Of a DNA stretch of 64,000 bases, positions 4,499 through 56,138 are shown piece after piece (within the stretch, counting starts at the first letter, position 1; every line of letters starts with the position of its first letter). The translations under genes and the position numbers were made by a program. Below the pieces are notes generated by a model. It saw only the letters and a program-made list of their open reading frames with translations. It was not told where the DNA came from and searched no databases. This DNA comes from Alphaproteobacteria bacterium (GTDB taxonomy: Bacteria; Pseudomonadota; Alphaproteobacteria; UBA7887): NCBI GenBank assembly GCA_030739735.1, contig JASLYQ010000010.1, positions 16,712 to 80,711 of the forward strand. The letters run 5' to 3'.

Positions 4499-4558
4499 AG
4501 GCCGTCTCTATAGTCTCGCGCTCTCCGCCATCCGGCGCAACACCTGCACCCTTGGACA

Positions 4559-7864: not shown

Positions 7865-7866
7865 TA

Positions 7867-8529
7867 CTATAACGCCTCACTGACGAGACGCCCGGCAGAG
7901 AGGTGCAGCCGCGAATGACCGCGGTCACGCGCCAACGCCTCGTCGTGAGTGGCGATCACGACGGAGGTATCGAGCTCGTTCAGGGCCTCGAAAAGACGCA
8001 TCAAACGCTCTCCATTGGCCGCATCTACATTGCCAGTAGGCTCGTCCGCCACCAACAGCATGGGCCGTCGCACCACGGCTCTGGCGATGGCCAGGCGCTG
8101 CTTCTCGCCGCCCGAGAGGGTTGGCGGGTAAGCCTCCATGCGATCGCCGAGACCGACCCAGTCGAGCAATTCCTCCACCGGCGCAGTAATCTCCGATTCG
8201 CGTGTACCCACCACATGCAACGGTAGTGCCACATTGTCGCGCGCCGTGAGATCGTCGAGTAGGCGAAAATCCTGAAAGACTACACCGATCCGCCGCCGCA
8301 GGCCGGCAAGCGTATTACGGTCAGCGGAAACCACATCCTCGTCAAAGACGCTTATCAGGCCCCGTGACGGCCGGTGCTCCAGATAGAGCAGGCGAAGCAG
8401 TGACGACTTCCCCGCGCCACTGGCGCCCGTAAGAAAATGGAAACTCCCTTGCTCCAGAGTAAAGGAGATGTCCTGCAACACTTCCGGACCAAGACCGTAT
8501 CGCATGCCGACATTCTCGAAGCGGACCAC
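7867..8529 (-). CDS. ftsE: Cell division ATP-binding protein FtsE
   Basis: Contains VRFENVGMRYG…GASGAGKSSLLRLL, LSGGEKQR and LLVADEPTGNVD motifs. The likely GTG start at 8529 gives MVRFENV…. The ORF-track extension to 8613 is probably spurious. Confidence 0.85.
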   Translation of the reverse strand: MVRFENVGMRYGLGPEVLQDISFTLEQGSFHFLTGASGAGKSSLLRLLYLEHRPSRGLISVFDEDVVSADRNTLAGLRRRIGVVFQDFRLLDDLTARDNVALPLHVVGTRESEITAPVEELLDWVGLGDRMEAYPPTLSGGEKQRLAIARAVVRRPMLLVADEPTGNVDAANGERLMRLFEALNELDTSVVIATHDEALARDRGHSRLHLSAGRLVSEAL

Positions 8530-8691
8530 CTCGCGCGGCCTCCCCCACCGACCAAGCAGAGGGCCAGAGTCGCACACACGCCGGACCCCAGTCCAGAGCT
8601 CAGCAGCTGCCATCTATCGGAGCCCAAGAAAAGCGGCTATGATCGCGCTGCTTTATGCCGGCTGAGGAGACAATCTCGCCGGAGAAATGAC

Positions 8692-9444
8692 ATGATTCTG
8701 AGCTGTCCTTCTTGTTCCACCCGGTTTTTCGTTGTTGACGAGGCGTTCGCCAGCGGCGGTCGCAGGCTGCGCTGCAGCAAATGTAAACACGACTGGTTCG
8801 AAGAAGCGCCTGACGCCACCGAAAAGGTTGTGGCCGTGGCTAGCCAGGAGAATGCGAAGGACGATATCGACGCCACGTTTGGCAAGGTGGCCTCTGACGA
8901 AGGCTCGGACGACAATATGCCACCGGTTGGAATCATCGGCGGCGGCGCAATTCGCGCAAGCCAAAACGGCGGCGGCTCCTGGATCAGCTGGCCAGCCCTG
9001 GTCAGTATGCTCGTCGCCCTGATAGCAGGGTTGGCACTGCTTTCGGATAGCGTTATCGCCACTTGGCCGCCTGCAAAACAGCTTTATGCCATGGTCGGCC
9101 TGCCCATCACGGAGCTCGGCGAAGGGTTGGAGATTCGAAATATCGAAGCTCGATTCGAACCCGCTCCCAATGGCTCGCGGCTGATTATCCTCGGCGACGT
9201 CGTCAATATCTCAAGCCACGCCCGAACCGTGCCGATGGTCCGCGTGGTACTACGCGACGACCAGGATACGGACCTGGGCGGTTGGCTCTTCCAAGCCACC
9301 GATCTCAAGATGATGCCCTCGGAGACGGTCTCCTTCCGCACAATCCACGAATCGCCGCCGAATGCGGCGAGGGATGCGGTCTTGGGCTTTACGGAGACGC
9401 CAACCGAAGCGGCGCCATCGCAGGAAAGCTCACCAGCTCAGTAA
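8692..9444 (+). CDS. MJ0042-type zinc-ribbon / DUF3426 family protein
   Basis: A likely start at MILSCPSCSTRFFVVDEAFASGGRRLRCSKCKHDWF (two CxxC pairs) is followed by a TM segment and a C-terminal domain. It is the usual divergent neighbour of ftsE in alphaproteobacteria. Confidence 0.7.
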   Translation: MILSCPSCSTRFFVVDEAFASGGRRLRCSKCKHDWFEEAPDATEKVVAVASQENAKDDIDATFGKVASDEGSDDNMPPVGIIGGGAIRASQNGGGSWISWPALVSMLVALIAGLALLSDSVIATWPPAKQLYAMVGLPITELGEGLEIRNIEARFEPAPNGSRLIILGDVVNISSHARTVPMVRVVLRDDQDTDLGGWLFQATDLKMMPSETVSFRTIHESPPNAARDAVLGFTETPTEAAPSQESSPAQ

Positions 9445-9451
9445 CTTTAGC

Positions 9452-38824: not shown

Positions 38825-39595
38825 TCACGTCTTGCCGACCAGTTTCTCCCGCCTCGCCTCGGCGTGTTTGCGGTTTTCCGGATCGCGCGCCATGAGTAAA
38901 ATCTGATCCTGGTCGAGGTAGAGACTGTTGGGCATGGCAAAATGCCGGTTCACCGATTCCTTGACCATCTGCTGGGCGATACGCGGACGCTCGCAGATCT
39001 CCGCCGCGAGTTCACCCGCCGCCGCCATGGGATCGTCGGCAATCATTTCACAAAGGCCCCAGGCGAGCGCCGTCTCGGCATCAACCTTGCGGGCCAATGC
39101 ACCGATCAGCTTGGCGCGGGCGGAGCCTACGAGATTGCCTATACGCGGCAGGCTGTTCCAGGAATAGTTGATCCCGAGATCAACTTCAGGTGCCTGAAAC
39201 CAGGCGTTACTACCCATGATGCGGAAATCGCAACTGACCGCTAGCGACATGGCACCGCCAATAGCAGGGCCGTTGACCACGGCGACAGTAAGCGGACGCA
39301 AGCGCTCCCAGGCGGCACACATGTCCGCACCGAGCCGCACTAGACGCCGCGCCTCCGCCATCGACGCACCGTCGCCAAAGCCCTCGCGCTCGTCAAGATC
39401 AGCGCCAGCCGAGAAGGCGCGCCCGGCGCCGGTGACCAGCACGCAGGAGAGGTCGTCGCGCTCATCGAGCGCTTCCGCCACCTGCCTCAGCTCGCGCTTC
39501 AGCGCGTTGCTCATGGCATTGAGCTTCTCCGGTCGGTTAAGGGTTACGATGGCAATGCCGTCGGCATCGCTCACGGTCACGGTTTCGAATGTCAT
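38825..39595 (-). CDS. Enoyl-CoA hydratase/isomerase (crotonase) family protein
   Basis: MTFETVTVSDADGIAIVTLNRPEKLNAMS…VLVTGAGRAFSAGADLDE is the crotonase-fold CoA-binding signature. Confidence 0.8.
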   Translation of the reverse strand: MTFETVTVSDADGIAIVTLNRPEKLNAMSNALKRELRQVAEALDERDDLSCVLVTGAGRAFSAGADLDEREGFGDGASMAEARRLVRLGADMCAAWERLRPLTVAVVNGPAIGGAMSLAVSCDFRIMGSNAWFQAPEVDLGINYSWNSLPRIGNLVGSARAKLIGALARKVDAETALAWGLCEMIADDPMAAAGELAAEICERPRIAQQMVKESVNRHFAMPNSLYLDQDQILLMARDPENRKHAEARREKLVGKT

Positions 39596-40866
39596 TCCTT
39601 GCCTTTCAGAAGCGATCGCACACGCGCCGACGTGGCAATCTCACCGCTGCCCGCATAGGCCTCGTGATTGCTGTCAATCTCATCGAGCTTGTAGACGTAG
39701 TTAACCATCATGCCCAACGAGCGATCGAGGCCAGCCGTCGAGGTATCAGCGCTCGGCGCCAGGCGCTCGACACGCGCGCCATTGGTGAGGTGGAAATGGG
39801 CCACGGGATCGGCGGCGCGACCGCGGCGCTTCTCACGCAACAGGTAGTGCGCCGCCCCGACCAGAAGCGCCGCCTCATCGTCAGGTTCTCCCGCTTCCGT
39901 CTTCTCCAGCCAGCGGCGCAGGCCTGGGATCGGCGATAGTGTCGCGAATATCTTCAGCCCCGGGAACTCCGCGCGCAACAAATCGACAACCCGTTTGATG
40001 AGAAAGTTGCCAAAGCTGATTCCGGCAAGCCCTTGCTGAGCGTTAGAGATCGAATAAAAGATGGCAGCATCAGCTTCTGCGGCATCAAGCGGCGGTGGCG
40101 CTTCGTCCAGCAACGCCGCCATGTCGCCCGCGAGGCCCGTGGTCAGGGCAACCTCGACAAAGATCAGCGGCTCGTCAGGCATGCGCGGGTGAAAGAAGGC
40201 GAAACAGCGGCGGTCGGAATCGAGGCGGTTCTTGAGGTCGCTCCAGGAGCGGATCTCGTGCACCGCCTCATAGGCGATCAAGCGCTCGAGCAGATTCGCC
40301 GAGGAGTTCCAGGTGATACGCCGCAACTCTAGAAACCCAACATCGAACCATGATGCGAGCAGATCCTTTAGCTCGCTATCGATCACTTTTCGCACGGCCT
40401 CGCCCAGCGGCAGGTGGCGCAACTCAGCCCGTAGATCGATGAGGAACTTGACGCCACCGGGTAGGCCGCCAAGCTGGCGGAATAAGGCCGCGCGTGGCGC
40501 CTCCAGCGCCTCGCGCAAGGCGGCCTCGGCGCCGGCTACGCCCTGTAATTGCAAGCGCGCTGCATTGTCGAGTCGTCGCCTATCCAGGCCAAAGTTATTT
40601 CCAAGCAGTCCGATAAAGCGAGCGCGACCGTCTTCGTCGAGACACAAATAGGCCTCACTCAACTCTGCAGCGCGCGCTAAGGCGGAGACGGCACCGCCGC
40701 GCGCTTCCAGACACTCGCATATGGCCGCTTGCAGGCGCCGCAGATCATCATCGCTTAATCCCGGCGACAAGGAGTTGCCTAAGCCCCTTCCGCGCCCGGT
40801 CGCCAGACGGTGCAATCGCCGCAAGGTGCGGTCAAGGAAGGTCCTATCAGACATGGCTAATTTCAA
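39592..40866 (-). CDS. Malonyl-CoA decarboxylase family protein
   Basis: A 424-aa MCD-fold protein with an N-terminal helical domain and a C-terminal catalytic domain. Its stop overlaps the crotonase start by 4 nt (operon). Confidence 0.6.
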   Translation of the reverse strand: MKLAMSDRTFLDRTLRRLHRLATGRGRGLGNSLSPGLSDDDLRRLQAAICECLEARGGAVSALARAAELSEAYLCLDEDGRARFIGLLGNNFGLDRRRLDNAARLQLQGVAGAEAALREALEAPRAALFRQLGGLPGGVKFLIDLRAELRHLPLGEAVRKVIDSELKDLLASWFDVGFLELRRITWNSSANLLERLIAYEAVHEIRSWSDLKNRLDSDRRCFAFFHPRMPDEPLIFVEVALTTGLAGDMAALLDEAPPPLDAAEADAAIFYSISNAQQGLAGISFGNFLIKRVVDLLRAEFPGLKIFATLSPIPGLRRWLEKTEAGEPDDEAALLVGAAHYLLREKRRGRAADPVAHFHLTNGARVERLAPSADTSTAGLDRSLGMMVNYVYKLDEIDSNHEAYAGSGEIATSARVRSLLKGKE

Positions 40867-40975: not shown

Positions 40976-42469
40976 CTAATGCGCCTCGGTATAGCCCCTC
41001 GGCAAGGCCGCGAGCACGCTCGCCACGTAGTGCGGCAGCGCCTCGCTGACCAGCCCAAGCCCCGCGTAACTCGCAGCAGTGGCATGGATCCAGGCTGCCA
41101 TGCAGGCGGCATCGAAGGGCGTGGCACCGGCCGCCGTCAGCCCGGTGATGAGGCCGGCCAGAACGTCGCCAGTACCGGCAGTCGCCAGATTGGCCGGACT
41201 ACCGCATTCAATCACAGCGTGACCATCGGGCGCGGCTATCACGGTCTCCGGCCCTTTGAGAGCCATCACGGTCCGCGATTCCGCCGCACCGGCACGGGCG
41301 CGGGCAAGCCGGTCGCCGGTGGCGTCGAACAGGCGAGAAAACTCGCCGTCATGGGGTGTCAGCACGCTGGGGCAGGCCGCAGTAGCGGCAAAAAGCGTAT
41401 CGCGATCGTCAGCAAAGCTGGTCAGTGCGTCAGCATCGAGCACGACGCGCCGACCCGCGGTGAGCGCCAGCATGGCCTTTTCGCGCGTCGCCGCACCAAC
41501 ACCATTGCCGGGCCCGACGAGCACGGCGTTCTTGCGGGTGTCCGCAAGCACTTCAGCAAAATCGTCGTCCGACACCATCACCGATTCGAGGGCAGCGGCA
41601 TAGACCGGGAAGGAGCCGCCCGGCGCCACCACCGTCACCAGCCCAGCCCCTACCACGAGCGCCGAGCATGCCGCCAGCCGGGCGGCGCCAGTGGTGGTCT
41701 CGCCGCCAACGATCAGCGCATGACCGCGGTGATATTTATGACCTTCCTGCGTCGGCCGGGGCAGACGCGCCTGCCACAGGCGCGGCGCATTTAACGCAGT
41801 GACCGGCGCAATATCGTCGAGCACGCTGGGAGGAATTCCGATATCCGCTACCACGAGTTCACCGCAAAGTCCGCGACCCGGACTGAGGAGGTGCCCGGGC
41901 TTGGGACGGAAGAAGGTCACCGTCAGCGCTGCCGGCGCAGCGGCCCCGCGTATCTTGCCGGTATCGCCGTCGAGCCCGCTCGGCACGTCGATGGCGACGA
42001 CATCGTGCCGGCCAGCAGCCAACGCCTCGGCAAGGACCAGCGGCAGGCCATTGAGATCGCGTGAGAGGCCGGCGCCAAATAGGGCATCGACGACGAGACC
42101 ATGGCCGGCAAGACACGCCGGAGAGGCCTTGACGATAGGCCCCTGCCAGCGCCCAGCCATGATCGCCGCGTCACCGCAGAGGCTGTCAGGTTCGCCCCAC
42201 AGTGCCAGGGTGACGGGCCAGCCATAGCGGGCCAACTCGATAGCGACACCAAAGCCATCACCGCCATTGTTGCCAGGCCCGCAAAGCATCAGAGTGGGTC
42301 GCGGTGCCCAGCGGGCCCGAATCGCCCGCGTCACGGCCGCGCAGGCATTCTCCATCAAAACGATCCCCGCCGTGCCGGCAGCGACCGCCGCGGCATCAGC
42401 CGCGCCCATCTCAGCACAAGTCAGAACCGCCTGCGCGCGCCAATCGTCGTTTTCGTGGACGGTTTCCAT
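40976..42469 (-). CDS. nnr: Bifunctional NAD(P)H-hydrate repair enzyme Nnr (epimerase plus ADP-dependent dehydratase; YjeF N/C domains)
   Basis: An N-terminal YjeF-N domain (…GIVLMENAC…LCGPGNNGGDG…) plus a C-terminal carbohydrate-kinase-like YjeF-C domain (…GPGNGVG… …GSPANLATAGTGDVLAG). The likely start is METVHEND… at 42469. Confidence 0.8.
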   Translation of the reverse strand: METVHENDDWRAQAVLTCAEMGAADAAAVAAGTAGIVLMENACAAVTRAIRARWAPRPTLMLCGPGNNGGDGFGVAIELARYGWPVTLALWGEPDSLCGDAAIMAGRWQGPIVKASPACLAGHGLVVDALFGAGLSRDLNGLPLVLAEALAAGRHDVVAIDVPSGLDGDTGKIRGAAAPAALTVTFFRPKPGHLLSPGRGLCGELVVADIGIPPSVLDDIAPVTALNAPRLWQARLPRPTQEGHKYHRGHALIVGGETTTGAARLAACSALVVGAGLVTVVAPGGSFPVYAAALESVMVSDDDFAEVLADTRKNAVLVGPGNGVGAATREKAMLALTAGRRVVLDADALTSFADDRDTLFAATAACPSVLTPHDGEFSRLFDATGDRLARARAGAAESRTVMALKGPETVIAAPDGHAVIECGSPANLATAGTGDVLAGLITGLTAAGATPFDAACMAAWIHATAASYAGLGLVSEALPHYVASVLAALPRGYTEAH

Positions 42470-42612
42470 ACGCTGTAGCCTAGTCCTGACGGCGCCATTG
42501 GGCAAAGGCTTGGCGCGTCACAAAAGCGCAACAAAACCGATACAGAAACCGTAACGCCGGACCGCTACGACCTGCCGTAAGCGACAAGTCGAAGCGTGGA
42601 AGGAGCTTTTGC

Positions 42613-44127
42613 ATGTCAATCAGGCGCGGGACGCGCTTTATAGGCACTACCATCATGGTATTGCTCTTGGCCGCAACGCAAGTGCAGGCGCAGGCGACGG
42701 ACAGCGATATCGAGACGCGCATTTTTGAGCTTGAGCAACAGCTCATCCTGCTGAAACGGCAGCTCGAGACGCAGGTCAAGCAGGCCCAGCAAGCCGCCGA
42801 TAAAGCCGCAGCGAGTGCGGATGCGGGCGGCGTGACCGTCAAGATGAAAGGCCCGACGCCAGAGTTTCAGACGGCCGACGGCGCCAGCACCATGAAAATT
42901 ACAGGCCGCATCCATTACGACACCGCGCTCTACAACCAGGACGGTGTGGGCTCAGGAGAGCAGGACGTGCGCATCGATCCGGATGCCAGCAGCGGCACCA
43001 ACTTCCGCCGTGCCCGCATCGGCGTGACCGGCAAGATCGAGAACGACTGGCAATACCTATTGATGCTCGATTCTGGCGGCGCGCCGGACAACAATGCCTT
43101 TCTTTACGAGGGTTTGATCAGCTATGTCGGCCTCCGGCCGCTGGCGATCAATCTCGGTCGCCACAAGGCGGCGACCGGATTCAACGAGCGCATCAGCTCT
43201 AACGACATCAGCTTCATCGAACGCTCTCTCGGTCACACTGTAGCGAGTGGCCCCTTCACGCGGCCGGCCAATGGCCTCTCGGTGAATGCCCACGGCGAGC
43301 AATGGTACGTCGATACGGGCATCTGGTACGGCGCCATCAACGACGATGCCGGCGACGATTTCCTATTTTGCAACGGTCGCACCGCCTTCGCGCCGATCAA
43401 CGACAAGCGAATAATGTTACACTTCGGTACCCATGCCTCGTGGATGATCGAGCCCCAGCAGGTCGCAGCCGGCACCACCGTGACTTGGCGCGACAACCCC
43501 GAGTTGCGCGTCGACGGCACGCGCTGGGTCAGCGCCACCAGCAACACCAGCCCGGCCAACGGCATCCGCAACGACGATGCCTGGTCCTACGGCCTCGAAG
43601 CGGCGGCAAAGTACGAAAGCGTATGGCTCAACGGCGAGATTAACTGGTTCGGTATGGACCAGATCTCTGATCCGGCCGAGCACTTCGCCGACAACCTACC
43701 GGACCTAGAATATATGGGCTACTACATCCAGGGTGGCTGGATCATCACCGGCGAGAGCAAGGGCTACAACATGTCCAAGGCGGCCTGGTCAGGCGTCAGG
43801 CCGGCCGAGCCATTCAATCTCGGCAGCGGCGGCCCGGGCGCCTGGGAGCTGGCCTTTCGCTACAGCTATGTCGACCTCGACGATGAGGTCAATACTTTCC
43901 TCAACGACAGCAACGGCACCAGTTGGCTGGTTGGCACCCGTGGCGGCAGGGAAACCAATTTCACCCTGGGCGTAAACTGGTACATCAACACGTACATTCG
44001 CTTCATGTTCAACTATATCCACGCCGACGTAGATCGCACCACAGCAGGCGACCAGCCGGGGGCAGGCGGCCTCGCCACCGGCGACAGCTTCGACATGCTC
44101 GGCCTGCGTGCGCAGGTAAAATGGTAG
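42613..44127 (+). CDS. OprO/OprP-family (phosphate-selective porin O/P) outer-membrane porin
   Basis: A signal peptide (…VLLLAATQVQAQA), an N-terminal coiled-coil segment (IETRIFELEQQLILLKRQLETQVKQAQQ), then a beta-rich region ending in a C-terminal aromatic residue (…LRAQVKW). Confidence 0.55.
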   Translation: MSIRRGTRFIGTTIMVLLLAATQVQAQATDSDIETRIFELEQQLILLKRQLETQVKQAQQAADKAAASADAGGVTVKMKGPTPEFQTADGASTMKITGRIHYDTALYNQDGVGSGEQDVRIDPDASSGTNFRRARIGVTGKIENDWQYLLMLDSGGAPDNNAFLYEGLISYVGLRPLAINLGRHKAATGFNERISSNDISFIERSLGHTVASGPFTRPANGLSVNAHGEQWYVDTGIWYGAINDDAGDDFLFCNGRTAFAPINDKRIMLHFGTHASWMIEPQQVAAGTTVTWRDNPELRVDGTRWVSATSNTSPANGIRNDDAWSYGLEAAAKYESVWLNGEINWFGMDQISDPAEHFADNLPDLEYMGYYIQGGWIITGESKGYNMSKAAWSGVRPAEPFNLGSGGPGAWELAFRYSYVDLDDEVNTFLNDSNGTSWLVGTRGGRETNFTLGVNWYINTYIRFMFNYIHADVDRTTAGDQPGAGGLATGDSFDMLGLRAQVKW

Positions 44128-47585: not shown

Positions 47586-47701
47586 GCACTCTTGGGCAAG
47601 AGCTGGCTCAGCTCAGCCAGCCGACTGTCTTCGAGAGCAGTGGCGCGGATCGGCACCATGGCGCGATAACCGGAAGCGGTGAGCATAGCAGTACATCAAA
47701 A

Positions 47702-47719
47702 CTGGTCAAGTATTAACAA
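47702..47719 (+). promoter_or_regulatory. Putative operator half-palindrome cTGGTCAAGTATTAACAa in the AT-rich region upstream of the sensor kinase
   Basis: It shares TGGT…TATTAAC with the motif at 50705-50720. The surrounding region is about 45% GC against a genome average of about 63%. Confidence 0.35.
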
Positions 47720-47870
47720 TAATAAATGCAGTTAAATCAATGTAATAATATATCATTATAATGCAAAATTCGAATAAGTTAACCGATGTTTGACGAAAAT
47801 TATCCAGCCCCTCGCAGGCAATTTGTTGCGAGACGAGAAATATTCAGTCAGCACGCAGCTTGACAGATTT

Positions 47871-47885
47871 GGCTGATATGAACCA
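47871..47885 (+). promoter_or_regulatory. Putative operator GGCTGATATGAACCA, 37 bp upstream of the histidine-kinase start
   Basis: 13 of 15 identical to GGTTGATATTAACCA at 50706-50720. Confidence 0.4.
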
Positions 47886-47921
47886 GTTTGTAGGCCATTG
47901 CACATTTACGGATGAAAAACA

Positions 47922-49376
47922 GTGGCTGCCCTCCGCTCCCTACATAGCCTACAGCTGATCCACGGCCTGGCGCTGGTGCTGCTTGTCGGCATCACCGGCA
48001 TCGCCGGCACGGTCGGGCTGGTGCTAAGCGAGCGCTGGTCGGCGGAAGCCCTGCGCATCGACAGCCTGTTGCGGCTGGCGGAAGAAGCACGCGGCGACCT
48101 CTATCGTCAGACCAAGGAGCTTTTCGACTATCATTTTCTCAACGATCCGGATGCCGCTGAGGAATACCGTGTTTACGGCGAGGCGCTGGCGGCCAAGCTG
48201 GCAGAACTCGATCGCCTGGCCAACAAGCCCGAAGAGAAAGCCGTCATTACAGGGCTGATAACCGCCCAGGAAGCCGCGCGCATCGATGCCGATGCGATCA
48301 TGGCGCGCGAGAGCGGTGGGTTCGACGATGCGGAGAAGCTTGCTCTTCTTGATACCGAACTCGAGGTTGGCAGCCTTGCGGCGGTAGAGGCTGCATTAGA
48401 CCGGGCAGCAAGAGAGTTTTTGCAGGCCCGCGGCGACCTGCAACAGCGGGTCTCACGTCTATCTACCATCGGTTTCGGGGTACTGCTCCTGGTGCTGATT
48501 GCCGCCGCCGGCCTTCTCCTTTATGCGCGCGGCATCATGCAACGAGCCTTCATCGCGCCGTTGTCCGAGTTGCTGCAAGCGCTAGCAGCCTTTGGCGCCG
48601 GGCGCCTGGATAGCCCGGTTGAAGAGCGCGGCGCAGCCGAGATGGTAACGCTGCAACGCGCTATCAATGCCATGACAGACGAAGTGGCGCAAAGCCGCAT
48701 GGCGTTAGTGCGCAGCGAGAAGCAAGCGGCGTTAGGCGCGCTGGTGCCGGTGGTCGCGCACAACATCCGCAATCCGCTTGCCAGCATCCGGGCCACGGCC
48801 CAGGTGCTGCCCGACGCGTCCGACGAGGCGGCTAAGAGCAAGGCGACAAAGGATATCCTCAGCGCCGTCGACCGGCTGAATGCCTGGCTGACCTCGCTGC
48901 TCTCCTATCTCGACCCCGGCGGCGCCCACCGCAAGGCCGGAAGGTTGGCCACTTGCGCCGACACAGCAATCTCTCTGCTTGCGGCCAAGCTCACCGAAAA
49001 AGAGGTCACGGTGACTCGCCAGGCCTGGGACGACGGTGGCAAGGTCTCACTCGACGCCAATCTGATGGAACAAGCAATCTACGGCTTGCTGGTCAATGCG
49101 GCGGAAGCCTCACCTCAAGGCGGACGGCTGAAGTTGACGGCTGGAAGTGACGAGACCATGAGCTGGCTCTCGATTAGCGATCAAGGCAGCGGGTTGCCCT
49201 TCTCCCCCAGCGCCGACGGCGTCATTCCTGGCCCCACCACCAAGGCCTGGGGCAGCGGCCTCGGCATCCCGTTCGCCTACAAGATCTGCGAGTTGCATGA
49301 CGGAACTTTGCAGTTCGACGACGTGGATGGCGGTGGCACGCGCGCCACCATCTCTCTGCCGGCGGTGGCGGCATGA
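47922..49376 (+). CDS. Sensor histidine kinase (two TM helices, periplasmic helical sensor, HAMP, HisKA, HATPase_c)
   Basis: TM1 about aa 15-38, TM2 about aa 186-208. H-box VVAHNIRNPLASI. G1/G2 boxes …DQGSGLPF…GSGLGIP. Its stop overlaps the start of the response regulator. Confidence 0.85.
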   Translation: MAALRSLHSLQLIHGLALVLLVGITGIAGTVGLVLSERWSAEALRIDSLLRLAEEARGDLYRQTKELFDYHFLNDPDAAEEYRVYGEALAAKLAELDRLANKPEEKAVITGLITAQEAARIDADAIMARESGGFDDAEKLALLDTELEVGSLAAVEAALDRAAREFLQARGDLQQRVSRLSTIGFGVLLLVLIAAAGLLLYARGIMQRAFIAPLSELLQALAAFGAGRLDSPVEERGAAEMVTLQRAINAMTDEVAQSRMALVRSEKQAALGALVPVVAHNIRNPLASIRATAQVLPDASDEAAKSKATKDILSAVDRLNAWLTSLLSYLDPGGAHRKAGRLATCADTAISLLAAKLTEKEVTVTRQAWDDGGKVSLDANLMEQAIYGLLVNAAEASPQGGRLKLTAGSDETMSWLSISDQGSGLPFSPSADGVIPGPTTKAWGSGLGIPFAYKICELHDGTLQFDDVDGGGTRATISLPAVAA

Positions 49377-50683
49377 GCGGCGCCACGATCCTCGTCGTCG
49401 ATGACGAGACCCCGTTTGCCGAGGCGGTGGCGATGCGGCTCGCACGCGACGGCCACGGAGCGAGTGTAGCCGGCACGCTCGGAGAGGCGCGCGCGCATCT
49501 TGCCAAGGCCGAGACAGATCTCGTTTTGCTCGACATGCGCCTGCCAGACGGCACCGGCCTCGATTTGCTGAGCGAGATCGCCGGCGTCTCGGTGGTCGCG
49601 GTAACAGCCTTCGGTGATCTTGATAACGCCGTCGAGGCCATGAAGCGCGGCGCCGTCGACTATTTGCGCAAGCCCCTCGACCTCGACGAGTTGGCGCTGG
49701 TTGTCGAGCGGGTGCTGGAATCGCACAACCTTCGCCGCCGCCTCGGCTACTCAGTTGAGCGCGAAGCCCATGCAGGCAGCGCCACGGCGCTGCTCGGCGA
49801 CAGCCCGGCAATGTGCGTAGCACGTCAGGAGATCGAAACCATCGCCGCGGTCCACACAGACGGCGACGCCCCTAACCTGATGCTGCTCGGCGAGACGGGC
49901 ACAGGCAAGTCCGTTGCGGCGCGGCTGGTGCATGAGCTGGGGCCCCGTGCGGGCCGCCCCTTCGTGCGTATCGACTGCATCGGCCTGCAACACCTCGATG
50001 CCGACCGTGAGCTATTCGGTGACAACGGAACGCCGGGCCTGCTGGAAGCGGCCGAGGATGGCAGTCTCTTTCTCGACGAGGTCTGCGAGCTGTCGCCAGA
50101 CCTTCAGGCCAAGCTGCTGACGGTGTTAGAGAACCGTGCCCTGCGCCACGCGGATGGCCGGCGCGAGATGCCCTTGCGGGCGCGCATCATCGCCGCCAGC
50201 AACCGCGACATCGCTGCCGAGGCCAGCGGCGGGCGCTTCCGCGCCGACCTCTATTATCGCCTCGATGTGCTGCATATCCAACTACCGGCCTTGCGGGATT
50301 GCCCCGGCGACGCGGTGCTTCTAGCCAGGCATTTCGTTGGTGAGACCGCACAGCGCTACGGCCGCGAGACGCCGCGACTGTCGAAAGCCGCGGCAGCGGC
50401 CTTAGGACGCTACGACTGGCCCGGCAATGTGCGCGAGCTTGCCCATGTCATCGAGCGCGCTGTGCTGCTCGACCGCAGCGGTGCCTTAGAGCCCTCCGCC
50501 CTGCCACTCACTCAAGCTGTGGCAAAGGCACGGCCTGAGTCCGTCAGTTCGCTGGCCGATACCGAACGCAGCGCCCTCGAACAGGCGCTTGCGGAAGCCG
50601 GCGGCAACGTCTCCGCCGCGGCACGGACGCTCGGCATCACCCGCATGACCATGCGCTACCGTAAGCGCAAGCATGGTTTATGA
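49373..50683 (+). CDS. NtrC-family response regulator (REC, AAA+ sigma-54-interaction-type domain, Fis-type HTH) with a degenerate GAFTGA motif
   Basis: REC domain ILVVDDETPF…DLVLLDMRLPDG. Walker A GETGTGKS. Instead of ESELFGHEKGAFTGA the sequence reads RELFGDNGTPGLLEAAEDGSLFLDE, so GAFTGA is absent. C-terminal HTH NVSAAARTLGITRMTMRYR. Confidence 0.85.
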   Translation: MSGATILVVDDETPFAEAVAMRLARDGHGASVAGTLGEARAHLAKAETDLVLLDMRLPDGTGLDLLSEIAGVSVVAVTAFGDLDNAVEAMKRGAVDYLRKPLDLDELALVVERVLESHNLRRRLGYSVEREAHAGSATALLGDSPAMCVARQEIETIAAVHTDGDAPNLMLLGETGTGKSVAARLVHELGPRAGRPFVRIDCIGLQHLDADRELFGDNGTPGLLEAAEDGSLFLDEVCELSPDLQAKLLTVLENRALRHADGRREMPLRARIIAASNRDIAAEASGGRFRADLYYRLDVLHIQLPALRDCPGDAVLLARHFVGETAQRYGRETPRLSKAAAAALGRYDWPGNVRELAHVIERAVLLDRSGALEPSALPLTQAVAKARPESVSSLADTERSALEQALAEAGGNVSAAARTLGITRMTMRYRKRKHGL

Positions 50684-50704
50684 TATCCGAAACGGGACGG
50701 AATT

Positions 50705-50720
50705 GGTTGATATTAACCAT
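50705..50720 (+). promoter_or_regulatory. Near-perfect 16-bp palindrome TGGTTGATATTAACCA (putative operator/UAS site 1)
   Basis: TGGTTGAT/ATTAACCA arms. Located in the AT-rich spacer between the regulator gene and the TonB-dependent receptor gene. Confidence 0.45.
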
Positions 50721-50732
50721 ATTCGAGTTTAA

Positions 50733-50752
50733 ATTGGTTCATTTAAACCAAT
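50733..50752 (+). promoter_or_regulatory. Perfect inverted repeat ATTGGTT-N6-AACCAAT (putative operator/UAS site 2)
   Basis: Its centre lies exactly 30 bp (three helical turns) from the centre of site 1, and the two sites share the TGGTT…AACCA half-sites. About 120 bp upstream of the receptor gene ATG. Confidence 0.45.
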
Positions 50753-50871
50753 AAATATCTTTTAAAACAATAGCTTGTGTAAAATTTCTAACGTTACTGT
50801 TTGACGCCTATGCCGGACGCCTTTACACCCTTCCCTCAAAGAAGACGATCTATCCTCGGGAGGGATATTCT

Positions 50872-53361
50872 ATGCCTTTTCTGGCCCACCGGGCTGGCCG
50901 GCCACTCGCGGCGGTCGCCACTGTTATTCTTGTCACCACCACTGCTGCCTGGAGCCAGGACGCACCCGTTTCCGTGCTGCCCGACATCGAGGTCATCGGG
51001 ACCACGCCGCTGTTGGGTACCGGCACCCCGATCAACAAGGTGCCCGGCAACCCACAGACGCTGTCCGAGGACGCCATCGAGCGCTATCCCAGCAATCAGT
51101 TGATCGATCAACTGCACAGCCAACTCAACAGCGTCACCGTTGTCGATGTCCAGAACAGTACCTATCAGAAAGATATCCGCTATCGCGGCTTCGCAGCCTC
51201 ACCCCTGCTCGGTGAATCCCAGGGCATCGCAGTGTTTCAGAACGGTGTCCGCATTAACGAGGCTTTCGGAGACACAGTGCAGTGGGACCTGATCCCCGAG
51301 CCCGCCATCCGTAGCATGAATCTGGTCAACAACAATCCCGCCTTCGGCCTCAATGCACTGGGCGGTGCGATCGCCATCGACATGCATGACGGCTTCAGCT
51401 TCCAGGGCATGGAGGCAGAAGCTCACGGTGGCTACTGGGAGCGCTGGGGCACGGAAATGCAGGCGGGCTGGGCCAACGAGAATTTTGCGGCTTACGTCGC
51501 CGCCGATCGCCAGAACGACGGCGGCTGGCGCAACGAATCCGAATCTGAGTTGTCCCGGCTTTACGGTGACGTTGCGATGGCGGGCGACGAATTCCAGATC
51601 AATTTTAATTTTACTTATGCCGACACAGACCTGATCGGCAACGGCCCGTCCCCAGCGGAACTCCTCGCCGCCAACCGGCGCGCCGTGTTCACCACACCAG
51701 ACACGACGGAAAACGAAATATTCTTCTTCCAAGGCAATGGCAGTTACGACGTCAGCGACATCGCTTCGGTTCAGGCCAATGCCTATTTCCGCCGCATCAC
51801 GCGCTCGACCCTGAACGGCGACGAGATTGCCGGCGAACAATGCGATCGCGGCGTTTTACTCGCCACATTCGCGGCTGACGGCAATCTGGCTGGCACCGTC
51901 GGCAACGGCGGCGCGGTGACCCTCAACCCAGAAAACTATCTCTGCGTCGAAGAAGATGACCCGACCCTACTCATCGACCAGAACGGCAACGCGATCGCGG
52001 CCTCCGCCGCCACTCCAGGCGCCGAGAACACCACGTCCACCCAGACCATGACCTATGGCGGCGCCATTCAGGAGGTCATTGAGGACGCCCTTTTCGGCCT
52101 CGACAACACGTTTATCTTCGGTACCGCACTCGACTTCTCGCAGACCCGCTTCCACAACGAGCAGCATGTGGGCTCGATCAATCTTGCGCGGGCGATCGTT
52201 AATACCGGCTCGCCTATCCTCAATGTGCAAGGCTATACGTCAGCCGCCGCCGGCGGCTCTCTGGTCGCCGGAGAAGCCACGCCGACGCAAATCAAGAACA
52301 CCACAGCGAGCCTCGGCATCTACGCTACCGACACGCTTGATGTCACAGATGCGCTCAGTGTCATGCTCGCTGGGCGCTTCAATCGCACCTCAAGCGATAC
52401 CAGCGACGAATTCGTATACGATGCGGTACGTGCCGGCAGCTTACAAAGCTCTAGCATCTTCAGCCGCTTCAACCCGGCGGTGGGCTTCACCTATGCGGTC
52501 GAGCCGCTAAACTCCACGGTCTATGGCAGCGCCGGCGAGAACACGCGCGCCCCGACACCAGCCGAGCTCGGCTGCGCCGATCCGAACGCGCCTTGCCGCT
52601 TCCCAAATGCTTTTCTGTCCGATCCGCCTCTCGACCAGGTGGTTTCGCGCACCTTCGAGGCCGGCGCGCGTGGCGCCATTCCCGGACTGCCCAACGATCT
52701 TGACGTGAACTGGAACTTCAGCGTCTACACTACGACCAACTTCGACGACATTCTCTTCGTCTCAGGCGGCACTGGGCTTGGCGCCGGCTTTTTCAAGAAT
52801 GTCGGTAACACCCGCCGCCGCGGCATCGAGGCAGGTGCCAACGGGCGCTGGGACCGCCTCGGCTTCTACGCCAATTACGGCTTCATTGAGGCGACCTTCG
52901 AATCCGAGTTTACCGTGGCCTCGACCAACCATCCCCTGGCAGCATCGCTCGGTGGCGGCCAGAGCATTCCGGTCTCCAAGGGTGATAACATCCCCGGTGT
53001 GCCAGACCACACGCTCAACCTCGGCGTCGATTACGCGCTCACCGAGGACTGGGTTCTGGGTGGCACCATGGTCACACGCTCGGGCGTCTATCTGCGCGGT
53101 GACGAGGGCAATCTGCTGCCGCGCACCAACGGCTATACAGTGTTCAATACCCACACTACCTACGTGCTTAGCGATTATGTGGAGGTCTTCGGGCGCATCG
53201 AGAATCTCTTCGACTCCAACTACGAGACCTTCGGCGTGCTCGGCGAGATTGGCAACGACACGCCGATCTACGAGCTACCAAACGGCATTACCAATCCCCG
53301 ATATCTCTCGCCTGGACAGCCATTCGCTGCCTATGTTGGCGTGCGCATAAGGTTGAACTAA
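50872..53361 (+). CDS. TonB-dependent outer-membrane receptor
   Basis: A signal peptide (…TTAAWSQDAP) and a plug domain with a TonB-box-like PDIEVIGT, then an 829-aa barrel with alternating beta-strand patterns. Confidence 0.8.
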   Translation: MPFLAHRAGRPLAAVATVILVTTTAAWSQDAPVSVLPDIEVIGTTPLLGTGTPINKVPGNPQTLSEDAIERYPSNQLIDQLHSQLNSVTVVDVQNSTYQKDIRYRGFAASPLLGESQGIAVFQNGVRINEAFGDTVQWDLIPEPAIRSMNLVNNNPAFGLNALGGAIAIDMHDGFSFQGMEAEAHGGYWERWGTEMQAGWANENFAAYVAADRQNDGGWRNESESELSRLYGDVAMAGDEFQINFNFTYADTDLIGNGPSPAELLAANRRAVFTTPDTTENEIFFFQGNGSYDVSDIASVQANAYFRRITRSTLNGDEIAGEQCDRGVLLATFAADGNLAGTVGNGGAVTLNPENYLCVEEDDPTLLIDQNGNAIAASAATPGAENTTSTQTMTYGGAIQEVIEDALFGLDNTFIFGTALDFSQTRFHNEQHVGSINLARAIVNTGSPILNVQGYTSAAAGGSLVAGEATPTQIKNTTASLGIYATDTLDVTDALSVMLAGRFNRTSSDTSDEFVYDAVRAGSLQSSSIFSRFNPAVGFTYAVEPLNSTVYGSAGENTRAPTPAELGCADPNAPCRFPNAFLSDPPLDQVVSRTFEAGARGAIPGLPNDLDVNWNFSVYTTTNFDDILFVSGGTGLGAGFFKNVGNTRRRGIEAGANGRWDRLGFYANYGFIEATFESEFTVASTNHPLAASLGGGQSIPVSKGDNIPGVPDHTLNLGVDYALTEDWVLGGTMVTRSGVYLRGDEGNLLPRTNGYTVFNTHTTYVLSDYVEVFGRIENLFDSNYETFGVLGEIGNDTPIYELPNGITNPRYLSPGQPFAAYVGVRIRLN

Positions 53362-54005
53362 TGACAGAGATAGGGGTCCTCGCCAGCACCCTCGACTTGC
53401 TTGCCAAAGGCGGGCCAGTGATGATGGTGCTACTTGCCGTCTCAGGCCTGGCGGTCCTGATCATCGTTGCCAAGCTGCTACAATTCGCGCGTCTCGGCCT
53501 CGGCAACCTGAAGTTTGTCGATCCGGCCATGACGGCGCTTGGGCGCAGCGAGCCGCAAGCAGCCCTGGCGCTGCTCGCTAAACGCAGGCACCCAGTGGCA
53601 CGAGCGATGGAAAGCGCGATCACCACCAGCACTGATTTCGGGCTCACGGCCGAGGATCGAGACGCCGAGATCAGTCGCGTCGGCAGTGCCCAGATCCGCG
53701 ATCTCGAAAGCCACCTGCGTGGCCTCGAGGTGATCGCAAATTTAAGTCCCCTACTCGGCCTGCTGGGCACCGTCATTGGCATGATCGGTGCCTTTGCCAA
53801 GCTTGAAGATGCCGGCTCCAAAGTCGATCCCGCCATGCTCGCCGGCGGCATTTGGGAGGCGCTTCTGACTACCGCTTTCGGGCTCGTCATTGCAATTCCG
53901 GCGTTGGCCGCCTTCTACGTGCTTGAAGGTCGCGTGGAGAGCGTGCGCGCGGTCATGAAAGATGCCGTAACGCGCATTCTAGGAAGCACGGTGGCGAGGC
54001 GCTAA
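53361..54005 (+). CDS. exbB: MotA/TolQ/ExbB proton-channel family protein
   Basis: 214 aa with three TM helices, including the conserved TM2/TM3 (…LSPLLGLLGTVIGMIGAF… …WEALLTTAFGLVIAIPA…). Confidence 0.8.
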   Translation: MTEIGVLASTLDLLAKGGPVMMVLLAVSGLAVLIIVAKLLQFARLGLGNLKFVDPAMTALGRSEPQAALALLAKRRHPVARAMESAITTSTDFGLTAEDRDAEISRVGSAQIRDLESHLRGLEVIANLSPLLGLLGTVIGMIGAFAKLEDAGSKVDPAMLAGGIWEALLTTAFGLVIAIPALAAFYVLEGRVESVRAVMKDAVTRILGSTVARR

Positions 54006-54007
54006 AC

Positions 54008-54415
54008 ATGGATTTTGGCGAGCACGAACGCGCCAAGTCCCAGCTCAGCATCGCGCCGCTGATCGACGTGGTGTTCCTACTGCTAGTCTTCTTCATGCTC
54101 GCTGGCTCGTTTATCCGCCAGACCGCGTTCGATCTGGCGATGGGCCAGCGCCCGTTACCGGGCGAGGCGACGGCCGTGGAAACCGGCCCACTACTGGTCA
54201 GGGTCGCGGACAACGGGCGCATCACCCTCAACGGCCTTGTGCTGCCGCTCGACCAGCTCGGTGGCGAGCTGCTCGGGCGCAGTGACGGCGATGCGGAGCA
54301 CAAGGTGACGCTCCGTGCCGGCGGCGGGGTCGCGGTGCAGCGGTTGGTCTCAGTGATGGATCGCATCACCGGCGCCGGCTTCCACAACATCCGTCTGACA
54401 CCGCCGGATAGCTAG
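54008..54415 (+). CDS. exbD: ExbD/TolR family biopolymer transport protein (copy 1)
   Basis: 135 aa with an N-terminal …IAPLIDVVFLLLVFFML TM anchor typical of ExbD/TolR. Confidence 0.8.
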   Translation: MDFGEHERAKSQLSIAPLIDVVFLLLVFFMLAGSFIRQTAFDLAMGQRPLPGEATAVETGPLLVRVADNGRITLNGLVLPLDQLGGELLGRSDGDAEHKVTLRAGGGVAVQRLVSVMDRITGAGFHNIRLTPPDS

Positions 54416-54417
54416 GC

Positions 54418-54837
54418 ATGAAATTTTCTGGCAGGGAACGGTTGCGCGGCGGCATCAACATGGTGCCACTGATCAATATCGTCTTTCTCCTGCTGATCTT
54501 CTTCATGCTGTCCAGCACACTTGTCACGCCCGACAACCTAGAGGTAACGCTGCCAGAATCCGAGACCGCGCGCGCCGTCGAGAGCCAACCCATCATGCTC
54601 GTCGTCGACAGCCAAGGGCGGATTACCATAAACAATCGCGAGATCCGCGCGGATGAGGTCACCAGTCGGCTGGCTGGGGTTACTGAGACCCATGCCGACG
54701 CCAGCTTGGTGATTAAAGCCGATGCCACGGCAACCTATGCTGAGCTCGGTACCTTGCTACACGCGGCCAAGACTGTCGGCATCGCGCGTATAGCGCTGGC
54801 CACGCGCGAGCCAGACTCTAAGACGACAGCACCGTGA
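54418..54837 (+). CDS. exbD: ExbD/TolR family biopolymer transport protein (copy 2)
   Basis: 139 aa with …NMVPLINIVFLLLIFFML. It is a paralogue of the preceding gene, separated by a 3-nt spacer. Confidence 0.8.
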   Translation: MKFSGRERLRGGINMVPLINIVFLLLIFFMLSSTLVTPDNLEVTLPESETARAVESQPIMLVVDSQGRITINNREIRADEVTSRLAGVTETHADASLVIKADATATYAELGTLLHAAKTVGIARIALATREPDSKTTAP

Positions 54838-56138
54838 GCGGCGTTCGCTCATACGAGTTTATAGCCGCAGCCGTGCTCTCCGGCGTGGTGCATATGGCGG
54901 CCATGACCGGGCTGGTGTTCTACCAGGCGGAGCCTGACGAAGAGGCCCCGGCGCCGATGGTCTATCTTGAGCTTAGCGCTCTCGATACAGATGTGACGGC
55001 GGAAGGCCCTGCCGATCCGGCCATGGCCCCGGCGCCAAGCCAGCTCAGCGAGACGACAGAGCCACTGCCGCCAGATGCTATGACGCCCGTGCCCCTGGCG
55101 CCGTCGCCACCGCCGGAGTTAGCCAAGATCACACCGCCCGAAGACCTTGACGAGCCATCGCCGCCGGACCTCGCGCCCCCTCCCCCGGACGAGGCACCGA
55201 TGCCCGAGCTGGCACCACCGCCGTTGGAGCTGACCGAGATCACACCGCCCGAAGACCTCAGCGAGCCACCGCCGCCGGACCTCGTACCCCCGCCCCCGGA
55301 CGAGGCGCCGATGCCCGAGCTGGCACCGCCACCGTTGGAACTGGCCGAGATCACACCGCCCGAAAACCTCAGCGTGCCACCGCCGCCGGACCTGACCCCG
55401 CCGCCGCCCGAGATCGTGCGCATGCCGGGTCTGGCGCCACCGCCGCTGCGCCTGTTGACAGAAATTGTCTCGCCCGACGATCTCGCCGAGCCACCACCAC
55501 CAGACCTGGCGCCGGCGCCCGAAGTGCTGCGCATGCCCGATCTGGTGCCACCACCATTGCAGAAACTGGCCGATATCGTGCCGCCCGAAGAACTGGCGGA
55601 ACCGCCGCCGCCCGAGACAATGCCGCCGCCGCAGCGCGACGAACTTGTCGAGTTGCCGCGCCAGCGGCCCAAACCAGAGCCGCCGGTACGCCGCGTTGAG
55701 ACACCGCCGTCGCCCGTGGCACAACCCGAGCGCACCCCCCTACCTCCGGTCGAGGAGACGCCACCGCAACAGGTCGCAAGCCTGCCCGCGCCGATACCTG
55801 CTCCCACGGCGCCACCGGGGCCTACCAGTCAGTCGCCGGAAGCGCTCGCAGCCTATGGCGGTAGCTTGTTCCACGCCATCAACACCACGGCCACACGCAA
55901 CTACCCGGCCCGCGCACTGAAACGGCGCCAGGAAGGCGTCGTGCCCATGCGACTGACGATAGACGCCGACGGCGCTCTGGTCTCAGCCATCGTCCTCGAC
56001 AAAAGCGAGGCGCCCTCGCGTCTCATCACGGCGGCACTGAAAGCCGTGCAAAAAGCCGCCCCCTTTCCTGCCTTCAGCAACGACCTCGGCAACGACCAAC
56101 GCCAATTCGACGTCCGCATCGTTTACAAGATTCGCTAG
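54834..56138 (+). CDS. tonB: TonB family energy transducer with an unusually long proline-rich tandem-repeat linker
   Basis: An N-terminal TM (…AAAVLSGVVHMAAMTGLVFY), about five imperfect 37-aa Pro-rich repeats (ELxEITPPEDLxEPPPPDLxPPPPDEAPMPELAPPPL), and a C-terminal TonB domain (…GVVPMRLTIDADGALVSAIVLDKS…). Confidence 0.8.
   Translation: MSGVRSYEFIAAAVLSGVVHMAAMTGLVFYQAEPDEEAPAPMVYLELSALDTDVTAEGPADPAMAPAPSQLSETTEPLPPDAMTPVPLAPSPPPELAKITPPEDLDEPSPPDLAPPPPDEAPMPELAPPPLELTEITPPEDLSEPPPPDLVPPPPDEAPMPELAPPPLELAEITPPENLSVPPPPDLTPPPPEIVRMPGLAPPPLRLLTEIVSPDDLAEPPPPDLAPAPEVLRMPDLVPPPLQKLADIVPPEELAEPPPPETMPPPQRDELVELPRQRPKPEPPVRRVETPPSPVAQPERTPLPPVEETPPQQVASLPAPIPAPTAPPGPTSQSPEALAAYGGSLFHAINTTATRNYPARALKRRQEGVVPMRLTIDADGALVSAIVLDKSEAPSRLITAALKAVQKAAPFPAFSNDLGNDQRQFDVRIVYKIR
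55096..55620 (+). repeat. Tandem repeat of about 111 bp, about 4.7 imperfect copies, inside tonB
   Basis: Nucleotide-level repetition is visible (…gagatcacaccgcccgaagacctcagcgagccaccgccgccggacctcg… recurs with point differences). It encodes the Pro-rich linker. Confidence 0.7.

Follow-up and report, generated by a model that had tools for sequence, protein, structure and literature searches.

A conserved palindrome upstream of a two-component system and a TonB-dependent uptake operon: candidate operator of an NtrC-family regulator without the GAFTGA loop

The 64000-nucleotide stretch of DNA analysed here (the window, at its full length; GC content 61%) comes from contig JASLYQ010000010.1 of an alphaproteobacterial assembly (GCA_030739735.1) and carries genes for a sensor histidine kinase, an NtrC-family response regulator, a TonB-dependent receptor, ExbB, two ExbD proteins and a TonB-like protein. 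Both the kinase/regulator operon and the receptor operon are preceded by copies of a 16 bp palindrome, TGGYT-N6-ARCCA, with the consensus TGGTTSATATNAACCA. From its statistics and from comparison with orthologous loci we conclude that this palindrome is a real, evolutionarily conserved candidate protein-binding site, and we argue below that it probably serves the adjacent response regulator. The genes and elements on which the argument depends are the following, the scores in bits being those of the weight matrix described in the next section.

47604..47619, no strand: possible weak extra site, TGGCTCAGCTCAGCCA; 14.9 bits, fourth-best match in the window
47859..47864, plus strand: CTTGAC, -35-like element of the kinase/regulator operon; invariant in eight independent loci and always 5 nt before the palindrome
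47870..47885, no strand: kinase-proximal candidate operator, TGGCTGATATGAACCA; 26.1 bits; kept in the window, L081, L082, L085, L088, L091, L093 and L100
47922..49376, plus strand: sensor histidine kinase (Pfam: HAMP, HisKA, HATPase) with two predicted transmembrane segments
49373..50683, plus strand: NtrC-family response regulator (Pfam) with REC, AAA+ and Fis-type helix-turn-helix (HTH) domains and without GAFTGA; proposed binder of the palindrome
50704..50719, no strand: distal receptor-promoter site (T1), TGGTTGATATTAACCA; exact match, 25.5 bits; kept in all loci of the TonB-dependent receptor type
50733..50752, no strand: proximal receptor-promoter site (T2), ATTGGTTCATTTAAACCAAT, core 50735-50750; exact match, 23.4 bits; conserved, centre 31 bp from that of T1
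50753..50800, plus strand: AT-rich spacer (approximately 22% GC) from the tandem sites to the -35 element; sequence partly conserved in the close clade
50801..50829, plus strand: putative sigma-70-type promoter of the receptor operon, TTGACG, 17 nt spacer, TACACC; hexamers conserved
50872-53361, plus strand: TonB-dependent receptor (Pfam)
53361-54005, plus strand: ExbB (Pfam)
54008-54415, plus strand: ExbD (Pfam)
54418-54837, plus strand: ExbD (Pfam)
54834-56138, plus strand: TonB-like protein (Pfam)

The palindrome in the window and in orthologous loci

The exact pattern TGGTT-N6-AACCA occurs twice in the 64 kb, at 50704-50719 and 50735-50750, where 0.01 copies would be expected, and none of 100 shuffles held two or more. 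When one mismatch was allowed there were five matches against 0.74 expected, the kinase-proximal copy among them. The window was also scored with a symmetrised weight matrix, trained solely on sites from other loci with the window left out, by an exact calculation of the score distribution. The three sites listed above took the first three places, and the next-best matches scored 14.9 bits (47604) and then 9.5 bits. Matches of at least 23 bits are expected 9e-4 times per 64 kb and, at the local AT-rich composition, 2.4e-5 times per 392 bp; three were observed. Motif frequency, one of the checks proposed in the initial annotation of this DNA, is therefore far above the expectation for AT-rich sequence, and AT-richness does not account for the motif. 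No match of at least 20 bits was found in a control of 770 kb surrounding 80 other NtrC-family regulator genes, which came from a profile search of genome contigs with the regulator alignment, generic NtrC-family peptides (YxWPGNVRE and LLDMRLPDG) having been chosen. The contig search with this alignment gave relatives of at most 46% identity and no orthologues, and was the source of the sister-clade loci L001-L004 considered below. A megablast search of the region against plasmids gave no match.

Homologues of the regulator were collected in one protein search and their contigs then compared. They form a close clade (L081, L082 and L085, with regulators 81-84% identical) and a distant set (L086, L088, L091, L093, L099 and L100, 55-58%), and in both the order kinase, regulator, receptor, ExbB, ExbD, ExbD, TonB is kept, with synteny of the target operon (50872..56138) seen in L081, L082, L086, L088, L091, L099 and L100. 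These genes are constant, whereas those outside the kinase-to-TonB block vary among loci. The sites hold their position in 8-10 independent orthologous loci while the DNA flanking them has been randomised. Upstream of the kinase gene, eight loci (regulators 55-84% identical) share CTTGAC, five variable bases and then T or C followed by GGYTSAWATNAACCA, and in the alignment of this region (A4) CTTGAC and the palindrome are the only conserved blocks; the centre of the site lies 35-45 bp before the kinase start codon. Upstream of the receptor gene, the two sites are 31 bp apart in the window, L081, L082 and L085 and 40 bp apart in L086, L088, L091 and L100, spacings that correspond to roughly three and four helical turns. 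The alignment of orthologous intergenic regions thus bears out the earlier suggestion of a candidate operator common to both operons, with the palindrome kept at the same two places. In addition, a metagenome scan for CTTGAC-N5-TGGYTSAWATNAACCA gave five matches, three of them upstream of kinase orthologues on contigs already in our set or nearly identical to these; the remaining two were unrelated, which is about the chance number as roughly estimated, not computed, from the information content of the pattern.

Over-representation, positional conservation in orthologous promoters and independently constrained half-sites together mark the palindrome as a candidate operator. The pattern of variation in the arms fits a pair of TGGYT half-sites, each read independently by a protein dimer.

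The initial annotation had arrived at a similar picture from single sequences, and it is partly confirmed: three of its sites are real, one is spurious and one shared 9-mer is not significant. GGCTGATATGAACCA lies where it was placed, at 47871-47885, as does the perfect inverted repeat ATTGGTTcatttaAACCAAT at 50733-50752. The related GGTTGATATTAACCA is present and identical to GGCTGATATGAACCA at 13 of 15 positions, at 50705-50719 rather than 50706-50720, and the same-face arrangement of the tandem pair stands with a centre-to-centre distance of 31 bp (50711.5 to 50742.5) in place of the proposed 30 bp. A third, degenerate copy had been seen in TGGTCAAGTATTAACAA, which we find at 47703-47719; it has a 7 nt spacer and mismatched half-sites, falls outside the top 25 matrix matches and lies in a stretch that is missing in L081 and L085 and unconserved in L082. 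The 9-mer TGTTTGACG does occur in both intergenic regions (47787 and 50798), but two copies also appeared in 14 of 100 shuffles, and whereas the copy at 50798 forms part of the receptor promoter, in its conserved -35 region, that at 47787 is unconserved.

The fourth-best match, TGGCTCAGCTCAGCCA, lies 266 bp upstream of the kinase-proximal site; approximately 0.16 such matches are expected per 64 kb. Its arms are extended (GCTGGCT/AGCCAGC), and where L082 can be aligned it is not conserved; a weak auxiliary site, a hairpin following the DUF3237 gene and a chance match are all conceivable.

The regulator, its missing loop and the two promoters

The kinase has a periplasmic domain of approximately 145 amino acids, as read from the sequence, between its two predicted transmembrane segments. 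The regulator has the domain composition of a bacterial enhancer-binding protein (bEBP), with Pfam scores of 74 bits for REC (PF00072), 125 bits for AAA+ (PF00158) and 49 bits for the Fis-type HTH (PF02954, HTH_8); the phospho-acceptor Asp54 is invariant in alignment A1, and Walker A (GETGTGK) and Walker B (DE) motifs are present. The GAFTGA (L1) loop, by which sigma-54-dependent bEBPs are defined, is missing. The segment ELFGDNGTPGLLEAAEDGSLFLDE reads ELFG-DNGTPG-LLEAAE where enhancer-binding proteins have ELFGHEKGAFTGA...G, and alignment with Aquifex NtrC1 leaves a 9-residue gap at this point, so that the loop is deleted from an otherwise intact AAA+ domain, as in sigma-54-independent bEBPs. 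The 33 closest homologues (P0001-P0032 and P0037) are also loop-less, with residual segments of varying length, and more distant homologues carry GAFT(S/G/N)A.

The regulator scored below the NCBIfam cut-offs for PrsR (TIGR02915, 276 versus 502.6), NtrX (NF051870, 270 versus 600), AtoC (NF008469, 274 versus 714) and NtrC (TIGR01818, 243 versus 558.6), and we conclude from these comparisons that it is not a member of any of the four families. The PrsR score is far under its cut-off; PrsR membership and the PrsR motif were both rejected. Its matches in the PDB include NtrX (5m7n) and VpsR (7v2b). At the overlap of the kinase and regulator genes (49333-49403) there is a sub-threshold Rfam match to CcsR1 (22.8 bits against a gathering threshold of 65.3, E = 0.02), most likely a chance match in coding sequence.

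The promoters of the loop-less loci are likewise not of the class that a sigma-54-dependent bEBP would serve. A scan for GG-N10-GC elements with up to three mismatches to TGGCAC-N5-TTGCA found none upstream of the receptor gene in any of ten loop-less loci, and its lone match in eight kinase-upstream regions was one element with three mismatches in L088; a sigma-54 promoter of the -24 GG/-12 GC class was rejected for both genes. On both counts, loop and promoter class, the regulator thus departs from what defines a sigma-54-dependent bEBP. Upstream of the receptor gene, TTGAC and TACACC do not vary among the four close loci, unlike the 17 nt between them, as would be expected of a real -35/-10 promoter, and TTGACN-N17-TAnnnn is found downstream of the sites in the distant loci.

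The geometry of the two promoters differs. At the receptor promoter of the window, TTGACG-N17-TACACC, the centre of T1 lies 89.5 bp and that of T2 58.5 bp before the TTGACG hexamer. Such tandem palindromes, well upstream of a putative -35/-10 promoter, are a feature of the Rhodobacter capsulatus NtrC type. Across loci, the distance from the centre of the second site to the -35 element takes values of 58.5-59.5, 79.5-80.5 and 91.5 bp, in steps of approximately 10-11 bp, near to whole helical turns. The GC content of the spacer after the sites is 18-33% in most loci, L093 (0.41) being an exception, and a role as a bend or UP-element region is possible for the spacer of the window (50753-50800). 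At the kinase promoter the centre of the single site is 44 bp upstream of the start codon, and the palindrome fills the spacer/-10 region of the CTTGAC promoter.

Two further elements deserve mention. Directly before the receptor start codon, at 50851-50868, there is an 18 nt block, TATCCTCGGGAGGGATAT, that is invariant in the four close orthologues while the bases flanking it vary. The block, which includes the Shine-Dalgarno sequence as well as an imperfect inverted repeat, does not occur in the distant loci, and the predicted fold of the leader RNA does not surpass that of shuffles (z = -0.43). The sigma-54 consensus is matched perfectly by TGGCACTACCGTTGCA at 8216-8231 on the minus strand and with one mismatch at 10080-10095 on the plus strand; the former was dismissed as probably due to chance, being inside an ABC-ATPase-like coding region where it encodes ..VALPLH...

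Loop-intact relatives and what may bind the palindrome

The few matches of 14-16 bits in the 770 kb control fell in L001 and L004, which hold the closest loop-intact relatives of the regulator (46% identity). Loop-intact relatives (GAFTNA, GAFTSA or GAFTGA) have the same recognition helix as the window regulator, LGITRMTMRYRM, and the same palindrome. TGGTT-N6-AACCA is present in tandem in L001 (813 and 847), L003 (2304 and 2326) and L004 (4737 and 4760), with a sigma-54 promoter 82-93 bp downstream of each pair (TGGTACATTTTTTGCA, TGGAATATATTTTGCA and TGGAATGTTTATTGCA respectively). In L101, where a GAFTSA regulator of 52% identity lies beside a kinase, one CGGTTGTTATCAACCA site is found 104 bp upstream of TGGCACGCATATTGCT, giving a range of 82-105 bp from sites to promoter over all sister-clade loci. 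These promoters have one or two mismatches in the same GG-N10-GC scan. In L001 and L003 the sigma-54 promoter precedes a TonB-dependent receptor that is 31-35% identical with the window receptor over its full length and shares with it a Cys-containing block, ELGC..P..PC.(F/L)PNAF; in L004 and L101 the palindrome stands beside other neighbours and other targets.

The sister clades (Methylophilus, Methylotenera and Pseudomonadota metagenome-assembled genomes for L001, L003 and L004, and the alphaproteobacterial-type L101) are thus alike the loop-less loci in recognition helix, in a palindrome that is often tandem and, for L001 and L003, in a homologous target. They differ from them in keeping GAFT(N/S/G)A and canonical -24/-12 promoters, in the lack of an adjacent kinase in L001, L003 and L004, and in the central six nucleotides of the palindrome (GTAAAC or GTATAC instead of SATATN). 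Among the loci compared, the class of promoter changes in step with whether the sigma-54 contact loop is present. A sigma-54 promoter depends on an enhancer-binding protein, and these loci have no other than the adjacent regulator, so that the regulator family itself presumably binds the palindrome; the co-travel of operator and family, together with the co-variation of loop and promoter, is our strongest argument that it would do so.

On this basis we consider it likely that the palindrome is an operator for dimers of the response regulator encoded at 49373-50683, bound through the Fis-type HTH, and that the regulator acts at two promoters. The membrane kinase would sense a periplasmic signal and phosphorylate the regulator, dimers of which would then occupy the tandem sites, placed on one face of the helix with 31 bp between their centres, as an upstream activating sequence. 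The bound regulator would activate the TTGACG-N17-TACACC promoter of the receptor/ExbB/ExbD/ExbD/TonB operon approximately 60 bp downstream, across the AT-rich spacer. As the GAFTGA loop has been lost and the target has -35/-10 rather than -24/-12 elements, activation should go via the housekeeping RNA polymerase, as it does for R. capsulatus NtrC, a suggestion that draws on the anatomy of the protein and on that precedent. At the kinase promoter, occupancy of the single operator, 5 nt after CTTGAC, would block RNA polymerase; because this site is inside the core promoter, repression is more likely than activation, and the kinase/regulator operon is probably subject to negative autoregulation. 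The autoregulated regulon run by the kinase/regulator pair that the initial annotation envisaged gains support from the way in which the motif follows the regulator family among different neighbours.

Several observations count against this model. L093 has a single clear receptor site, L099 has two weak ones 19 bp apart, and L086 and L099 are without the kinase-proximal site. In the L090 clade, which has no receptor gene, no site whatever is found despite an almost identical HTH, and the HTH is conserved well beyond the motif-bearing clades, so that HTH identity alone is no proof of specificity. Tandem spacing in the sister clades is 22, 23 or 34 bp, and same-face phasing is therefore not universal. 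The -10 hexamers are weak (TACACC for the receptor; ACCAGT or CCAGTT for the kinase), the promoter assignments, made from conservation, are putative, and negative autoregulation is read from the position of the site.

Four other explanations were weighed against the regulator as binder. The palindrome might be an operator that serves another transcription factor, such as a global nutrient or metal regulator, whose gene lies elsewhere, with the kinase/regulator pair as merely one of its targets. TonB-dependent receptors are often under such global regulators, the adjacent regulator is assigned as binder by sequence comparison, the L090 clade is without the motif although its HTH is nearly the same, and the TGGT/ACCA half-site may resemble GntR-type half-sites. 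However, the kinase and this regulator are the only regulators constant in all loci, and the motif follows the regulator family to the other neighbours and targets of L004 and L101 and to positions 82-105 bp upstream of sigma-54 promoters where no other enhancer-binding protein is present. A 16 bp palindrome with a 6 nt centre also fits the Fis-type HTH dimers of this family, and the spacing patterns of GntR (N3) and LysR (T-N11-A) regulators do not match it. We therefore regard a factor encoded elsewhere as unlikely. It is more improbable still that the regulator works with sigma-54 at an unusual promoter despite its altered loop. Its AAA+ domain is otherwise intact and sigma-54-like consensus strings occur elsewhere in the window, but the whole GAFTGA segment is deleted, loop length varies within the clade, the upstream regions are empty in the scan described above apart from L088, and in alignment A2 no GG/GC pair is conserved from the sites to the start codon; the perfect match at 8216 is in coding sequence.

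The remaining two explanations do not involve a protein that recognizes the palindrome. If the palindromes acted as RNA, they would form hairpins that terminate or stabilize the regulator transcript, or a structure in the 5' leader, and the receptor-proximal palindromes do lie just after the regulator stop codon and can fold (-15.2 kcal/mol over 86 nt, z = -1.8). Yet among 24 aligned sites there are no compensatory changes and covariation is under the shuffle mean; the arms change independently, with 6 of 24 sites unpaired at each of the two variable positions, and the three inner base pairs never vary. The stems are short and AT-rich, without the GC-rich stem and T-tract of an intrinsic terminator, no terminator was called at the sites, no Rfam family matches, and the motif also stands between the -35 element and the kinase start codon and, in relatives, upstream of sigma-54 promoters. 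Hairpin, terminator and riboswitch readings were accordingly rejected, and we hold a role as RNA to be extremely unlikely. Chance similarity in AT-rich intergenic DNA has in its favour the unusual composition of both intergenic regions, which fall to 24-25% GC (100 bp windows) in a stretch of 61% GC, but is already refuted by the three observed matches against 2.4e-5 expected and by conservation of position in at least eight independent loci.

As to how the two kinds of locus arose, we incline, on a balance only just in its favour, to the view that the family records a natural rewiring of an enhancer-binding protein from sigma-54 to sigma-70. On that view the recognition helix, TGGTT-N6-AACCA, the tandem upstream layout and one TonB-dependent receptor subfamily would have been retained, while in one alphaproteobacterial lineage GAFTGA would have been deleted and -24/-12 replaced by TTGAC-N17-TAnnnn at a helically phased distance.

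Neighbouring genes, known systems and significance

The surroundings of the two operons vary more than the operons themselves. The window has genes for malonyl-CoA decarboxylase (39592-40866, minus), YjeF (40976-42505, minus) and a phosphate-selective-type porin (Porin_O_P, 42613-44127, plus), and no operator-like site precedes the porin gene. L088, L091 and L100 have the same order of these three genes with the kinase gene directly after the porin, so that the block of molybdopterin oxidoreductase, sulfotransferase and DUF3237 genes at approximately 44.5-47.6 kb looks like an insertion between porin and kinase. The stretch from the DUF3237 gene to the kinase promoter (47586-47860) is not conserved, and in L081 and one JGI contig RidA-like and DUF1330 genes take its place. 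Its first part (47586-47690) gives a gapped alignment to a 69-amino-acid minus-strand gene of L082 and looks like a remnant; the rest (47690-47860) is AT-rich, with several matches to sigma-70-like promoters on the minus strand, among them TTGACC-16-TATGCT at 47709-47682. In L099 (66-4362) the kinase gene is preceded by genes for Porin_O_P, a rhodanese and, divergently oriented, a PhoX alkaline phosphatase; this neighbourhood and the recurrence of the porin hint that the system may be connected with the acquisition of phosphorus or anions.

The window receptor has a conserved Cys pair, ELGCADPNAPCRFPNAF, and no relative by sequence among solved structures in the PDB. Homologues of 31-36% identity are found in methylotrophs (the Methylophilus metagenome-assembled genome of L001, and plasmids of Methylobacterium and Candidatus Methylocalor) and in Burkholderiales; the comparison took in L102 and L103. 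On the Variovorax plasmid NZ_CP138497.1 (L102) the homologue lies beside a pyrroloquinoline quinone (PQQ)-dependent methanol/ethanol dehydrogenase gene and NosR/ApbE-like genes; the plasmid contexts (33-36% identity) give a weak lead on the substrate of the receptor. The loop-less L090 locus (4502-10149; regulator P0015, 56% identical) has kinase, regulator, ExbB, ExbD, ExbD and TonB-like genes without a receptor gene; its HTH is nearly identical (LGISRMAMRYRM), TGGYT-N6-ARCCA is absent, and an AGAACA-N12-TGTTCT repeat precedes a CTTGAC.

Among known systems, the NtrB/NtrC pair of R. capsulatus is one in which the response regulator also has REC, AAA+ and Fis-type HTH domains with the L1/GAFTGA segment deleted. 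We take R. capsulatus NtrC to act from tandem upstream sites and both to activate and to repress (glnB p1/p2), and by analogy the window system would work like it, with a loop-less AAA+ regulator, tandem upstream sites and a putative sigma-70 promoter. The differences are that the window regulator falls under the NtrC, NtrX and AtoC NCBIfam cut-offs, that its candidate operator is TGGYT-N6-ARCCA, that its sensor is a membrane HAMP kinase with a periplasmic domain, and that the target is TonB-dependent uptake, not nitrogen genes. The layout of the sites resembles that of Escherichia coli NtrC, for which two dimer sites approximately three helical turns apart form the glnAp2 enhancer and a single site overlapping the promoter of its own operon, glnLp, gives negative autoregulation, although E. 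coli NtrC needs sigma-54 and GAFTGA and its site is TGCACC-N5-GGTGCA. PfeS/PfeR and PirS/PirR of Pseudomonas aeruginosa likewise consist of a periplasm-sensing kinase and a regulator, encoded beside a receptor gene, that induce the receptor when its substrate is present, but these regulators are of the OmpR winged-helix type, not AAA+, and bind direct repeats near the -35 element.

Enhancer-binding proteins without GAFTGA, including R. capsulatus NtrC, Caulobacter NtrC, NtrX and VpsR, have been reported to act at sigma-70 promoters (bioRxiv 10.1101/2023.06.06.543975). Caulobacter NtrC, NtrX and Vibrio cholerae VpsR resemble the window regulator in having lost the contact loop while keeping the AAA+ fold and regulating -35/-10 promoters, but they belong to other subfamilies, in which the loss was independent and the operators and regulons are different, and VpsR also needs cyclic di-GMP. 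The PrsK/PrsR system of PEP-CTERM regulation (TIGR02915) provides the best-scoring NCBIfam model of the window regulator (276 bits), and in that system as well a motif in the DNA was linked to a regulator through co-occurrence (PMC1569441); PrsR is, unlike our regulator, sigma-54-dependent, its motif contains TTTACA and its targets are PEP-CTERM proteins. We found no description of the operator or of the regulator-receptor pairing in the searchable literature, and searches on GAFTGA with TonB-dependent receptor, on TGGTT/AACCA with response regulator and on sigma-54 with receptor and Methylophilus gave nothing relevant. What the present family adds is a set of loop-intact and loop-less relatives that share one operator and, in part, one type of target.

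For the marine and soil Alphaproteobacteria that carry it, the analysis proposes a specific operator and a two-promoter regulon for an uncharacterized two-component system beside a TonB-dependent uptake operon, and the regulator and operator of this receptor subfamily may offer a route to the inducing signal. The loop-less clade would join, as an independent lineage, the few AAA+ regulators of the enhancer-binding type that no longer use sigma-54. Its relatives with the loop, the same operator, a homologous target and sigma-54 promoters would provide matched natural variants for the study of activation of the housekeeping polymerase, and, if the rewiring is true, regulators with and without the loop could be paired by their common operator to examine how an AAA+ activator acts at a sigma-70 promoter.

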